Shown here piece after piece: positions 23,630 through 28,248 of a stretch of 32,219 bases of DNA. The first letter of the stretch is position 1; every line of letters begins with the position of its first letter. A model generated the notes under the pieces. That model was not told the origin of the DNA. It saw only the letters and a program-made list of their open reading frames with translations, and made no database searches. A program made the translations under genes and the position numbers. The stretch is taken from NCBI GenBank assembly GCA_964637745.1, contig CAZWYB010000004.1, positions 1-32,219 of the forward strand, written 5' to 3'. The DNA is from an uncultured Pseudomonadota bacterium (lineage in GTDB: Bacteria > UBA10199 > JACPAL01 > GCA-016699445).

Positions 23630-26600
23630 GTGTCCATAAGAGCTCTTACAGCACACAACGCGAAGCGGTCCCACTCGCCTCGACACGACTTTAAACCAAC
23701 TACGAGTACGACCCCTCATCCCCCTGTGGAGACTGGGACCCGGTCTTACTTCAACATGATCACAGGAGGAGCCACATCCATCCTCCCCTGCCTCTTCGGT
23801 GGTCTGGAGAAGATCGGGTCCCTCGTCTCCTCTTTTCGGAAGAGAATGGAAGCGGAGGCGGAGACCTACGCCGCCAAGGGCGATTATGAAGGCGCGCTTC
23901 AAATCGGCCTCAAACTGCGCGGGGGATTGAAAAATGACATCACCTTAGACCTCAAGCTCGCGGAGTGGGCGAAGAAGGCCCACAACTTGGTCGTTGCCTA
24001 CGAAATCCTAAAACCCCATCGTGCGCCGCTGCCGCTCAACATCCGTGATGAGGCGCGACAGAAGACCTTCATCGAGCTGACGCGAGATCCCAAGACGTGG
24101 GTCGCGGTCGCTCATGAGCAAATGAATAAGGGCGATTATGCGGCGGCCCTCGAACACCTCCGGTTGGCCCGCGAATTCGCGTTCACCGAACCGAGGTTCC
24201 CGCGTCCGGGCGAATGGCAGGTCTTTCGAACCGTGCCCAGAGAGACCGTCGATGCGGCCTTGGTCCAGCGGATTGAAGACGAGATATCGGCAGTCACCCA
24301 CGCCGTTGAGGATCTCCCAGACCGCGTGCGAAGGATGTATCCGGAAATCTATCGTTCCGAGATCGCGCCTCCACTCGATTCCCTCTCGAAGTTGGAAACC
24401 AGGCATATCGACCTCTCCACCCTCACCCAGGAAGCCAAGACGAAGATCCTGGCCGGCATTCTTTATCACAATCAGCGACTCATCGGTGAGGGCTACAACC
24501 TTACGAGCCAGATCGAACGCTACACCCAGCTTGAGCCCTACAAGGCCAATATGATCGAGGTCGTCTCCGCTCAGCGCCCTCGAAACTCCCGATTCGCCTT
24601 CGAACTCGACCCATCCGCCGTCCAGGGCGACGTGGATCCCATGGAGGTCCCTGCGGAGGCGATTCGAAACGATGCGGTCATGAAGGCCTATGAGGGCTTA
24701 TCTCGGGAAAACCCGATCACCGCGCATCTCATCTCAGAGATTTATGGAGATATGAAGGAAACCCTTGTCCGAGAAAGCGCGCGAGCCTTTGATCGGGGAC
24801 GCTACAACCCCTCCCTTTCTTCTTACGACCCGATCCGGGATCAAACGATGTTCTCGGACTACCGTGAGGAACCGGTCCACAACGTGCAAGAGTTGACGGC
24901 CCTCAATGACCGCCTCGCGAGGCTCTACGTCGGCGCCCCCGTCGAAGAGTTTTTAAAAAAAATCAGCAGTCAAAAAGAAGCTCCAAAAGTTGATGAAACC
25001 GGCGGCGCCTTGGCCGCCCTCCCCCGCTATTCCCGGATCATTTTTGAAACACCCGAACCGACCGACGACTGCCGTCATACCACTTGGGCGGATGTGAGTG
25101 ACACCAAACACTTACTGATCAGTCGCCTGGAGGAACACGAACGTTACTTCCTCCAGAAGCGGGCCTCCCTCGACGTCGACGCGGAGAAATCCCTCCGTAA
25201 CAGAGACCTGAAAGGCATGAATCGAGTCACCGAGATCCTCGATCATCTCCGTCAGGAATACCGGCCGGCGGCCGCTGAGATTGAAAAGATCAAATCCATC
25301 CCTCTCAACAACATCCCCGAGGCCCTGGCTCTCCTGAAAAGGGTCGGCCCATCGGTCTTTGAGGCGGAGGAGCGATATCTCCGCTCCAACCTCCGAGACA
25401 AAATCGAGACGCTCCCGGGCTCTCCCACTTGGACGGACGGAAACGGACGAGAGCAAAAGTTAAAAGACATCTTGGGAGACATCAGCCCCTTCAGCGCCAA
25501 GATCTTCCATGTCGATGTGGGAGGACACAGAGCCTTCGAGCAAAGGATCGCCCGATATCAGCGCCTGAACGACATCGTCAACGAAAAGGGGACGGATGCG
25601 GCCGTCAGCGAGACGATTTCCCACCTCGAAAGCCAGGAAACCAAGGCGCATCGCTCGGATTGGATCAAACGGCATGTCGGTGTCATGGTCGGACCGGATC
25701 CCATTCCAGACATGATCGAGGGGCTTAAAATCGCGCGCGGAATGATCCGTTCCGATGATTCACAAGTCCGGGCGCGCGGGTACGAGGCCTTGAGGCAGCT
25801 GAACAACGCCTCCCAAAATGAGGACATCAAGGGTAAGGTCGCGTCCCTTCGTTGGTATGAACGATATGTCGAGAATTTCGCGGTCCCCGCCGTCACGATC
25901 ACCGCCAGCATGGCCCTCGGAGGCATCACCACGAAATTCATGGGCCCGCTTGCGACCCGTTTCCTGGGTCAAACGGCCGCCGGCCACATCGCCTTCTGGT
26001 CCGGCACCGCCGTATTCAATATATCCAACCGCCTGCTGACCGCGAAGTATGAAGGCGCCGGTGTCGTCAACGAACTCAAAAATATGGCCGCACATCCCAT
26101 CCAGACCGGCGTGGGGGTTTTGTTCGACGGTCTGATGATGCACTATCAAAACTTCGTCACGGGACGTGTCGGCCGCCTGGCCGAAAACAGTCTCGGTCTT
26201 AAAGGCTGGTCTCGGAAGCTCCCTTTTCCGGTCCGCTTTCCCGTTACGGTCGGCGCCTTGCACGTTTGGAACAACGGCGTCCTGTCCGTCTACCGCAACC
26301 TCGAAAACAACGGTTCATTCGCGAACGTCATCAGCGACCTCACGCATCCAAATCTTCTTCATGACGCCGCCTTCCTCTTTGCCCTCGAAACGTTCGGAAA
26401 CGGCATCTTCCGGGCCGCGAAGAATTTCGATGCCGCTGAGGAATTAGGCATCAAGATCGCGCGCCTGGATAAGACCCGCCTTAAACTGGAGGCGGAAATC
26501 GACGGACTTCAATCCCTCCGAAGGAGATCGCCGGACCGCTCGACGGCCCTTTCGCTGACGAACCAATTGGAGGGACTCTTAGAAAAGTATCGCGACCACC

Positions 26601-26790: not shown

Positions 26791-28248
26791 ATGGGATTCA
26801 CAATAGGCGAAGGAGAAGGAATGAGGCCCGAGAGCCGAGAGGATTTGGCGAAGTTCCGCGTCGAGGAGTTTCCAAAATCCTTCGATGAACTCAGGGACGA
26901 CATCGAGAAATCGATCCGCCCCGCTCTTGATCCATTCTCCTCGAGCAAGGAGTTTAAAGGCCTAACGGAGCCTCCAGGAAATCGGCGGACCGTGACGAAT
27001 CTCTTCTCGAATACACTCCCCTCCCTCAAGGACCTCCCATCAATCCGAGAGACCGTCAGAAAGGCGACGGTCGGGGCGGTCACGCGATTTCTCGCCGAGA
27101 CCCCGTCGGAGCCGACCGGGAAGGCGGCCCCTTACGACGGGACCCGCGTCACGGTGACCCTCGACCCAAGGACGGGAGAGATCAAGTCTCTGCAGCCTGG
27201 GGCACCCTCGGATTCTAGAAACTTATTTGATGAACAGGGCAACGTCTCGCTCCCAGTCGCCATTCAATACGACAAGAAGAGTAAAACCTATCGACTCACG
27301 CTCGATCGTTCGACGAAGACGGGTCTTTCTGACGCAAGATTCTCCCCTGAGTTTCGGCTGGCCTTGGCTGGGCTTCACGGCCAGATGATCGAGGTTCCGA
27401 CCTCGTCTCCTAAAACGGCTCAATCCTCCTTCGACACCTCCCCCCTCGCGGGGGGCGCGCTCTCCTTAGGTGGTCTTCTTGCGATGTCACCCGAGATCCT
27501 CAAAGTCGAAGCGGTCGCAATAGCGGCCGTCTTACTAGGTCGTTTCCTTTTCAGCTTCAGCGATCCGGCGAAACCATCCCTTTTCAGGCGCATCCTGCAC
27601 TTCTTCAGCAACGACATGGCCGTCAGGGATTGGGCCGATAAGGCTTGGGAGCTTAACTACGCAGGAAAGATCCAATCAGCAAAGACGGCCTACGAGAAGG
27701 CGATCGAACTCGCTTCCAAGGAGCCGCAAGCTGGAAAGTCTGTCTATGAGAGTTTTAAGCGTTTAGAAGAAATGCAACACAAATATGGCGACTATCTCAT
27801 TCATATTGGCGAATTCGATCGAGGGGTGGCCGCCTTGAAGGCTTCTTACCAATATTCTCTGAACGCCGCTACGCATGCACCAACGGCAAAGGAGAAAGAC
27901 TATCAGATGCTCATGTTTCTTAGATTCAGAGTAAGGGTTTATGAGCTATATAGTTATAAAGCTTCCGAAGTACGGATGAGAGGAGACCATCTCATCGCTG
28001 CAAGCTATTATGAAAAGGCCACGGATTTCGCACCAGGTTGGTTCGAGGATGCAAGAAGTGTAAGAATCAATGTCTTGGCCCGCGCCTGGCAACAGTACGA
28101 GCGCCATTATTCCACACCCGAGGGAGGGGCAGCGCTGAAAGATGCCGTCGTAAGGATCATTAAAAAGGGTAATTCCTTTGGGATCAGCGGCTTGACACTC
28201 AGAAATAGGGTCGAGGAACTTGATATTGAAGACAGACAAAAAAAGTGA
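26791..28248 (+). CDS. Hypothetical protein (485 aa): central hydrophobic hairpin, C-terminal TPR-like region
   Basis: ATG is 5 nt after AAGGAGGA and 14 nt after the upstream stop, so the two genes look like an operon. Hydrophobic aa 218-256 (LAGGALSLGGLLAMSPEILKVEAVAIAAVLLGRFLF). TPR-like helices (AGKIQSAKTAYEKAIELA, AASYYEKATDF). Confidence 0.8.
   Translation: MGFTIGEGEGMRPESREDLAKFRVEEFPKSFDELRDDIEKSIRPALDPFSSSKEFKGLTEPPGNRRTVTNLFSNTLPSLKDLPSIRETVRKATVGAVTRFLAETPSEPTGKAAPYDGTRVTVTLDPRTGEIKSLQPGAPSDSRNLFDEQGNVSLPVAIQYDKKSKTYRLTLDRSTKTGLSDARFSPEFRLALAGLHGQMIEVPTSSPKTAQSSFDTSPLAGGALSLGGLLAMSPEILKVEAVAIAAVLLGRFLFSFSDPAKPSLFRRILHFFSNDMAVRDWADKAWELNYAGKIQSAKTAYEKAIELASKEPQAGKSVYESFKRLEEMQHKYGDYLIHIGEFDRGVAALKASYQYSLNAATHAPTAKEKDYQMLMFLRFRVRVYELYSYKASEVRMRGDHLIAASYYEKATDFAPGWFEDARSVRINVLARAWQQYERHYSTPEGGAALKDAVVRIIKKGNSFGISGLTLRNRVEELDIEDRQKK

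Follow-up and report, generated by a model that had tools for sequence, protein, structure and literature searches.

A stretch of 32,219 nucleotides from an uncultured Pseudomonadota bacterium (GenBank assembly GCA_964637745.1, contig CAZWYB010000004.1, positions 1 to 32,219 of the forward strand; the whole stretch is hereafter the window) carries two adjacent genes, P1 and P2, that are real coding genes forming one operon, lie outside every characterised family at sequence and fold level, and stand behind a predicted sigma-54 promoter that matches the consensus exactly. P1 is the bare core, or minimal member, of a very rare and uncharacterised family of giant helical proteins of which sigma-54 promoters are a hallmark, and P1, P2 and the 12 relatives of P1 that were scored occupy the zone of intermediate hydrophobicity reported for membrane proteins secreted by type III and type IV systems. 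The reading we put forward, at a probability of roughly one in three, is that P1 and P2 are Sec-independent, membrane-inserting proteins exported by a specialised route, P2 acting as partner or holder. A first-pass annotation of the letters alone had compared the pair to the translocators and chaperones of secretion systems.

P1 (23630-26776, forward strand) is an intact open reading frame (ORF) of 1048 codons starting with GTG, and P2 (26791-28248, forward strand) an intact ORF of 485 codons starting with ATG, the two separated by 14 nt. By direct reading of the sequence, a Shine-Dalgarno AAGGAG occupies 23615-23620 (forward strand), 9 nt 5' of the P1 start; another, AAGGAGG, at 26779-26785 (forward strand) lies 3 nt past the P1 stop codon and 5 nt 5' of the P2 start, so that the two-gene layout, its spacing and the strong ribosome-binding site of P2 given by the first-pass annotation are all as described. 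With the housekeeping genes of the window as reference, codon log-likelihood in the annotated frame is +0.31 for P1 and +0.13 for P2, and between -0.4 and -0.46 in their other frames, which limits the coding signal to the annotated frame. The C-terminal third of P2 (27748-28248, forward strand) deviates in composition, with a codon score of +0.04 and a G+C content at third codon positions (GC3) of 0.47 vs 0.66 in the remainder of the gene, and its DNA is indeed the more A/T-rich. From base composition, the chance of a 485-codon open frame was calculated as ~2e-8. The window is chromosomal, with genes for L13, asd, cysG/hemD, hemC, hemB, polA, the large subunit of ribonucleotide reductase, a patatin-like protein and an FHA protein, and scans of it with Rfam and for tRNAs gave no match.

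The predicted sigma-54 promoters are the firmest functional feature of the locus, and one that the first-pass annotation did not contain. Scored against the consensus TGGCAC-N5-TTGCW, the -24/-12 promoter of the P1-P2 operon (TGGCACGCCTCTTGCT, 23587-23602, forward strand) has zero mismatches and ends 28 nt before the GTG of P1. A second promoter with zero mismatches (TGGCACCCACCTTGCT, 23365-23380, reverse strand) precedes the divergent operon of a 151-aa gene and a delta-60-repeat gene; it extends from 41 to 26 nt upstream of the 151-aa gene, whose annotated ATG is at 23339. A third, sigma-54-like site with one mismatch (TGGCCCTCCCTTTGCT, 28794-28809, reverse strand) starts 45 nt upstream of the start of a 159-aa gene at 28764. 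All three are correctly oriented and start 41-45 nt before a start codon. Sites with at most one mismatch number five in the window against 0.51 expected, a count that none of 100 shuffles reached. The two exact sites are mirrored within the 290 nt that separate P1 from the divergent 151-aa gene, and the reverse-strand promoter forms a 19-nt inverted repeat with that of P1.

Between the mirrored promoters lies the only AT-rich island of the window (23378-23620), where GC falls to 0.16 per 100 nt. It holds a perfect 12-nt palindrome (TGTTAATTAACA, 23526-23537), repeats of AATTAACATTAA at 23451 and 23530, 79 nt apart, and three sites resembling that of integration host factor (IHF) with one mismatch each; the exact IHF consensus was not found in it. 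The island is plausibly an enhancer for a bacterial enhancer-binding protein (bEBP) and IHF, that is, a shared upstream activating and bending region. Neither rpoN nor a bEBP gene occurs in the window. Transcription of P1-P2 from its sigma-54 promoter would require an enhancer-binding activator, and the operon would thus stay silent until a specific signal arrives; the activator would probably bind the AT-rich palindromic island, shared with the mirrored promoter of the divergent operon.

The promoter type recurs in the loci of P1 relatives (designated below by L numbers, the relatives themselves by P numbers of four digits) and is a hallmark of the family. Across the window and 11 related loci, 20 of 24 sigma-54 sites have a same-strand gene start 27-77 nt downstream. 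Sites of this type stand directly upstream of the giant-family genes P0003, P0004, P0006 and P0014 and of many of the genes around them, as well as upstream of a 150-aa gene preceding P0013, and the gene island of L083 encodes a kinase-GAF-Sigma54_activat protein. At L081:9972-10001, L085:9973-10001 and L088:5788-5818 the site starts just 28-30 nt before the conserved ATG of the giant gene, which places the predicted transcription start at or adjacent to the start codon and implies leaderless or near-leaderless mRNAs.

An exhaustive phmmer search of 1.84 billion representative proteins found 13 remote relatives of P1 (E from 6e-28 to 1e-3, the best at 6.4e-28; identity 24-32%; 1,099-3,101 aa), all unnamed or 'hypothetical' and all from metagenome-assembled genomes (MAGs) labelled 'bacterium' or 'Deltaproteobacteria bacterium'. 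Word-indexed searches with the P1 sequence and with a profile returned P1 itself alone, and a scan of genome contigs with P1 gave no match. Homology extends over nearly the full length, P1 aa 73-1035 aligning by BLASTP with aa 286-1290 of P0003, and residues invariant in the family are kept along the whole of P1. P1 lacks the ~280-aa N-terminal domain of its relatives and the C-terminal modules that vary among them, of which the kinase of P0007 is one. P1 has no match in Pfam (TPR thresholds included), NCBIfam, PADLOC or PDB sequences; the description of the two proteins as unrecognisable thus stands for curated libraries and fails for P1 in the wider protein space, where it has these uncharacterised relatives.

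From N- to C-terminus, P1 has TPR-like repeats, a long helical middle, a semi-hydrophobic block of ~185 aa and coiled-coil-like helices. A disordered N-terminus (aa 1-62; 23630-23815, forward strand) precedes these, S/T/P/H-rich and then Gly-rich and weakly hydrophobic; S, T, P and H make up 52% of aa 1-40 vs 19% protein-wide, and in an AlphaFold2 (AF2) model the predicted local distance difference test score (pLDDT) of aa 1-61 is below 50. The TPR-like helical repeats follow at aa 63-200 (23816-24229, forward strand; AF2 helices at pLDDT 74-91), with the motifs GDYEGAL from aa 84 and KGDYAAALEHL from aa 167. The family profile matches consensus TPR in its N-terminal region (E = 1.6e-20) and nothing else in the PDB; TPR_14 is matched by 5 of the 14 family members, P1 by itself not being among them. 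The block spans aa 746-930 (25865-26419, forward strand), and aa 931-1035 (26420-26734, forward strand) form the conserved, long, coiled-coil-like C-terminal helices, which AF2 places at 933-966, 970-993 and 1001-1028; their heptad contrast is 0.30-0.50. Disordered N-terminus, repeats and terminal coiled coil are thus much as the first-pass annotation had drawn them. Built on the 14-sequence alignment, the AF2 model is all-alpha with a mean pLDDT of 67 and good for aa 62-750. In Foldseek it recovers generic TPR solenoids only; neither it nor the P2 model has a PDB match at E <=1e-3, a weak negative given the low confidence of the hydrophobic parts.

The block aligns as discrete segments in all 14 proteins and is the best-conserved large region of the family, with a sum-of-pairs BLOSUM conservation of 1.46, ahead of the C-terminal helices (1.33, second) and of aa 63-745 (0.6-1.0). 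A lack of such conservation would have counted against the analogy drawn in the first-pass annotation, as would a confident structural or HMM match to a known cytoplasmic enzyme family; no such match was found in the libraries, by Foldseek or with the family profile.

Insertion energies were computed with a re-implementation of the position-specific predictor dGpred for the apparent free energy of membrane insertion (dGapp, here dG; windows of 18-35 aa), validated on internal controls only. An earlier, crude position-independent hydrophobicity scale was dropped because it left weak transmembrane (TM) helices and soluble cores inseparable. Known TM helices (of an SctU-like protein, CdsA, RseP and TMEM43) scored -6.7 to +1.0, and the minima of 12 soluble controls mostly +1.7 to +3.3, with four at +0.5 to +1.1. 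For orientation, Krampen et al. (PMC6110835) place TM segments of type III-secreted proteins around -1 kcal/mol, with segments below +1.5 accepted, single-span membrane proteins at -2 to -5 and soluble proteins at +2 to +4 kcal/mol, and describe an 'intermediate hydrophobicity' by which TM substrates of type III and type IVB secretion systems (T3SS, T4BSS) evade the signal recognition particle (SRP).

Within P1, one segment, aa 750-779, clears the usual TM cut-off (+1.19 kcal/mol); the segments 909-930 (+2.34), 787-805 (+2.93) and 864-881 (+4.4) do not. The 'at least five' hydrophobic segments of the first-pass annotation were therefore an overstatement, the sequence offering one marginal TM-like helix and several amphipathic ones. 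Averaged over the family, hydrophobicity peaks at P1 aa 749-767, 770-803 and 901-930, with amphipathic stretches in between. Twelve relatives were scored, and each has its lowest dG of the whole protein (-1.24 to +1.11) within the block, 11 of them at its first segment and P0016 at the next; that the minimum sits so consistently in one place counts for much more than the value of P1 itself. Two segments ~160 aa apart are TM-compatible in the relatives, at -1.2 to +1.1 and +0.8 to +2.1. No relative reaches classical single-span values, and the hydrophobic helices of P1 are weaker still than theirs. P1 and P2 have no Sec signal at their N-termini, in agreement with the first-pass annotation; the same predictor does detect signal peptides in two neighbours, the 159-aa and the delta-60 protein.

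P2 (26791-28248, forward strand) is an orphan of 485 aa. Its N-terminus is charged, a small beta-rich region lies at ~aa 105-205, and after a hydrophobic hairpin the C-terminal half is all-helical and weakly TPR-like. The hairpin measures 43 aa (aa 214-256; 27430-27558, forward strand) and basic residues follow its second helix in the sequence. The hairpin previously placed at aa 218-256 is borne out for helix 236-256, which is TM-like (+0.12; Kyte-Doolittle value over 19 residues, KD19, 1.96), and much less so for the Gly-rich helix 214-232 before it (+3.04; KD19 1.38). Inc proteins have a bilobed hydrophobic domain, two closely spaced TM helices in a hairpin of ~40-60 aa, which the tight two-helix hairpin of P2 resembles; measured against that type, the first helix is too weak as a TM segment. 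TPR likeness in the C-terminal third is likewise fainter than had been proposed (aa 284-310 at 16.9 bits vs a cut-off of 25.7; CTPR-rv4 at E = 0.024), and this sub-threshold signal is the sole one, with nothing significant in Pfam, NCBIfam, PADLOC or PDB sequences. No P2 homolog was found in a 5.8-billion-protein collection, in six-frame ORFs of 17 related loci (phmmer --max) or in plasmids, and no counterpart downstream of the giants in relatives. The single-sequence AF2 model of P2 is poor (pLDDT 44), and its fold search is without evidential value.

Several possible relationships of P2 were tried and rejected. As a diverged or truncated P1-family paralog, suggested by KVEAVAIAAVLLG in P2 vs VAVEAVILAAATAG in the family, it reaches a probability of 0.8% in hhalign over a TPR-like match of 25 columns, and BLASTP of P2 against P1 returns nothing. 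A hidden Markov model (HMM) of eight copies of a ~70-aa N-terminal module found around the relatives (below) recovers its positives at E 1e-23 to 1e-32 and no window ORF, the N-terminus of P2 included. Against the ~450-aa (HExxH) and ~435-aa families that neighbour the relatives, hhalign gives P2 a probability of at most 0.12%.

The surroundings of the relatives carry much of the argument for export. Multigene islands at L081/L083, L085, L088, L171 and L172 hold tandem giant paralogs together with a ~1,050-1,190-aa family, a ~450-aa family, a HEAT-repeat protein, TMEM43-like proteins and HSP20. HopF/AvrPphF-like proteins occur above the Pfam cut-off in L083 and are on record also in L171 and L172. 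A kinase module is fused to P0007, and modules found at the C-termini of giants also occur as genes of their own. An N-terminal module of ~70 aa, disordered and rich in Gly and charged residues, is common to eight island proteins that otherwise differ and is a candidate secretion or targeting signal; its consensus is MxxGxxGxGG..EFDPxRG..EAIxRDLSTPGAE..LPKxVxEAAxxYD, and carriers lie at L081:19391-23903, L083:6732-9773, L085:14275-17424 and L088:10088-13216 and 15608-17628. This modularity is effector-like or polymorphic-toxin-like. The ~450-aa neighbour family (386-453 aa; L083:5269-6630, L085:17491-18843, L088:13282-14442), without a Pfam or NCBIfam match, has an invariant HEFVH (HExxH), which suggests a zinc metalloprotease.

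Set beside known systems, P1 and P2 resemble T3SS translocators (SctE/SctB: YopB/YopD, IpaB/IpaC, SipB/SipC, PopB/PopD) in being a tandem gene pair without Sec signals and perhaps in having one or two semi-hydrophobic helices of intermediate dGapp (compare PMC6110835), flanked by long helices or coiled coils; TPR elements recall sets of a translocator and a class II chaperone (SycD/LcrH, PcrH, IpgC). They differ in having no sequence, profile or fold similarity to translocators beyond generic TPR, in the size of P1, two to three times that of any translocator, and in repeats built into P1 vs the separate ~160-aa class II chaperone of T3SS. The 'associated TPR module' of the first-pass annotation is accordingly no separate chaperone, its repeats lying within P1 and only weakly in P2; Foldseek matches of SycD, PcrH and IpgC were discarded as chaperone evidence, occurring at E >=0.17 among designed TPR proteins and hence generic. 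The translocon analogy survives in part, through the absence of any known enzyme or fold, the conserved block, the intermediate dG and the effector-like islands, and fails in the direct sequence, fold and gene tests for translocators and class II chaperones.

With TM effectors secreted by type III and IVB systems (Tir, SseF, the chlamydial Inc proteins, Legionella TM effectors) the pair shares TM segments of intermediate hydrophobicity (PMC6110835), and its relatives share the surroundings of effector-type modules; there is no homology, however, the organism is known neither as a pathogen nor as a symbiont, and the first hairpin helix of P2 (+3.0) is too weak as a TM segment. A further likeness is regulatory. 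The HrpR/S-sigma-54 system of Pseudomonas syringae is a sigma-54-dependent virulence regulon. Like it, and like the CtcC/sigma-54 regulon of Chlamydia, which PMC7482065 describes as controlling T3SS effectors and membrane proteins, the locus has a canonical -24/-12 promoter before genes for Sec-independent proteins of membrane or effector type. Unlike these sigma-54-dependent virulence and late-gene regulons, it has no identified activator gene in the window, and its mirrored pair of perfect promoters around one AT-rich island is a layout particular to the locus.

The export reading draws on three strands: the hydrophobicity niche, the effector-like islands of relatives and, as some support, the Chlamydia precedent (PMC7482065). 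That the proteins are exported and by what route, that they insert into a foreign membrane and that P1 and P2 interact are all our inference. P1 and P2 would at first be soluble in the cytoplasm, since SRP could not capture hydrophobic helices as weak as theirs, and would then be exported by a specialised route, for which the relatives raise the suspicion of type III. Both the P1 block and the P2 hairpin would insert into a target membrane, with P2 as a lineage-specific co-inserting partner or holder for P1. A bolder version, which we consider improbable, would make the P1 family a new class of sigma-54-switched, Sec-independent, giant membrane-inserting proteins of an uncultured, delta-proteobacteria-like lineage, serving as translocator or delivery scaffold for the modular effectors of their islands (HopF-like, kinase and HExxH, with the common N-terminal module), with P1-P2 as a minimal two-component form unrelated to known translocons.

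This conclusion must be tempered by a number of observations that weigh against it. Four of the 12 soluble controls also have a segment with dG below 1.5, so that hydrophobicity alone is no proof of membrane insertion for P1 or P2, and the AF2 model of P1 is poor at aa 760-940, i.e. of low confidence in the hydrophobic block itself. P1, P2 and the family profile have no sequence or fold match to translocators, effectors, toxins, chaperones or enzymes, and P2 offers no relatives for comparison. In the window there is no effector-type domain, and neither island genes nor the 70-aa module occur in it, apart from FGE-sulfatase-like genes; the ORF list and TPR scans show no small TPR chaperone gene (~150-170 aa, of SycD/LcrH/IpgC type) flanking P1-P2. 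As the first-pass annotation had stated, library scans of the window proteins detect no secretion apparatus in the 32 kb.

The link to type III secretion through the relatives is open to similar doubt. In L081, L085 and L172 the island adjoins a gene of the SctU/FlhB family whose product has the NPTH autocleavage motif. With 356.1 bits against a cut-off of 358 for SctU and 323.9 against 349 for FlhB, this product falls just short of both models and could therefore be flagellar. The SctU-like proteins of these three loci are 78-81% identical and the genomes closely related. No such adjacency is seen in L086, L087, L090 or L173, other family members adjoining polA (L086, L087) or other giant TPR proteins with no sct gene in view. 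In L093 a sctU-like gene (64% identical) is followed directly by rpsB-tsf-pyrH-frr-uppS-cdsA-dxr-rseP, which marks it as an orphan backbone gene whose adjacency to the islands may be coincidental; this housekeeping context rules out sctU adjacency as proof of a T3SS locus. Each of the orphan genes (L085:7380-8528, L081:7302-8459, L172:633-1784, L092:5474-6631, L093:3088-4233) has a Ser/Thr kinase-PEGA gene on one side and, on the other, the island of giants (rpsB in the case of L093), with no other sct or fli genes nearby. Beyond 64% identity, a metagenome scan for the SctU-like gene returned generic FlhB only.

The alternative that survives best, although we regard it as unlikely, would keep both proteins at home: P1 as a scaffold in the inner membrane of its producer, anchored by the first and last segments of the block as a hairpin or re-entrant element, and P2 as a hairpin-anchored partner, with both its flanking domains in the cytoplasm. 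The cytoplasmic TPR-like N-terminal and coiled-coil C-terminal parts of P1 would organise a sigma-54-controlled envelope, stress or developmental programme. TPR repeats joined to long helices are a typical scaffold architecture, the two TM-compatible segments of the relatives would serve as the anchor, and the basic residues after the second hairpin helix of P2 fit an in-in topology. Sigma-54 regulons commonly control envelope and developmental functions; here the co-regulated genes of the window encode exported envelope proteins with signal peptides (delta-60 and 159-aa), and TMEM43-like membrane proteins and HSP20 are among the neighbours of relatives. The hydrophobic helices are, however, weaker than those of the true inner-membrane controls (-6.7 to +1.0), the scaffold leaves unexplained the kinase and effector-type fusions and the HopF-like islands with their shared N-terminal module, and a multi-copy family diverged to 24-32% identity suits an arms race better than housekeeping.

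Quite unlikely, in our estimate, is that P1 is a self-delivering pore-former or toxin-translocation module released by a route other than T3SS, with P2 as an immunity or holder protein whose hairpin masks or counters the block. Large clostridial toxins and colicin pore domains exemplify the hydrophobic delivery and pore regions of AB and alpha-pore-forming toxins. P1 shares with these a conserved hydrophobic stretch of ~170-190 aa, one strongly hydrophobic helix amid amphipathic ones, in a very large and otherwise soluble helical protein, and its relatives carry enzymatic modules on the same chain; yet neither in fold nor in sequence does it match a pore-former or toxin of any kind, large AB and alpha-pore-forming toxins included, so that the likeness is one of analogy. 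The variable C-terminal modules of the relatives, with free-standing copies next door, recall polymorphic toxins, whereas P1 itself lacks a C-terminal toxin module. An orphan, fast-evolving and tightly coupled downstream gene is the typical pattern of immunity, and P2, 14 nt behind P1, conforms to it, but at 485 aa it is large for an immunity protein and no equivalent follows the giants of the relatives.

Very unlikely is a remnant, in decay or of recent acquisition, in which P1 would be a truncated family member and P2 a young or degenerating ORF without conserved function: the missing N-terminal domain and C-terminal extensions that all relatives have, the weaker helices of P1 and the singleton status, low codon score and deviant GC3 of P2 would suit it, but both ORFs are intact, the 485-codon one far beyond chance expectation, both have strong ribosome-binding sites behind a perfect sigma-54 promoter, and P1 keeps the invariant residues of its family throughout.

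If the export reading is right, P1 and P2 would represent a previously unseen family of membrane-targeting secreted proteins in never-cultured environmental bacteria, with a sigma-54 switch on every island gene. The P1-P2 pair would be its smallest natural version, hence the easiest to test; the 'intermediate hydrophobicity' rule would extend beyond known pathogens, and sigma-54 sites combined with the shared N-terminal module would give a handle on the remaining effector repertoire. If the proteins are inner-membrane scaffolds instead, the locus would be a sigma-54 regulon of the ordinary, lineage-specific kind. Proteins without characterisation are frequent in uncultured lineages of this sort.

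Across the mirrored promoter, the divergent operon begins with the 151-aa gene (22884-23339, reverse strand), whose product is Gly-zipper-like with a weak Gly-zipper_Omp match; its stop overlaps the start of the delta-60-repeat gene (21238-22887, reverse strand; delta_60_rpt at 192.6 bits). Just 1 nt separates the annotated ATG at 23339 from an AGGAG before it, and an in-frame ATG two codons on, at 23333, with a spacer of 7 nt, is the more likely start, yielding 'MGLLDKIG...'. The shared control region suggests that the 151-aa gene may be functionally linked with P1-P2. A resemblance of its N-terminus to P1 aa 54-69 has E = 0.41 and was set aside as chance.

The 159-aa gene, within 28285-28809 (reverse strand), is convergent with P2, 36 nt separating the stop codons, and with its own sigma-54-like site probably belongs to the same regulon as P1-P2. 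No related locus yielded a homolog of its product. The signal peptide dG is +0.28 (+0.3) for this protein and -1.2 for the delta-60 protein. Pfam and NCBIfam scans found no TPR in the 151-aa and 159-aa neighbours, and PADLOC found no anti-phage defence match for P1, P2 or the adjacent unannotated genes of 151, 363 and 159 aa. Beyond the 159-aa gene, 28910-32191 (reverse strand) encodes a protein of unusual architecture, 1093 aa or longer and probably cut off by the end of the window: it combines MalT-like/TPR repeats with a hydrophobic helix around aa 692 and a C-terminal region, ~350 aa long, that is rich in Cys. Two ORFs on the far side of the divergent operon, 17080-17949 (forward strand, 289 aa) and 18980-20071 (reverse strand, 363 aa, with a good coding signal), have no Pfam or NCBIfam match above threshold and no counterpart in related loci.

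Proteins with an FGE-sulfatase domain occur near P1-family genes both in the window (20221-21093, reverse strand) and in the island of a distant relative (L085:20264-21244 and 22752-23699), with 37-40% identity between the two over the C-terminal 70 aa. The PolA encoded in the window shares 72% identity with its counterpart in the soil MAG 'bacterium SMAG_U1372', 60% with that of a 'Deltaproteobacteria' MAG and 49-50% with those of two genomes with P1-family genes. P0016 (L086:10001-18136) and P0010 (L087:10001-26642) lie immediately upstream of, or within a few kb of, polA, and P1 lies 8 kb from it (12977-15781 vs 23630); this proximity may be a remnant of positional conservation.

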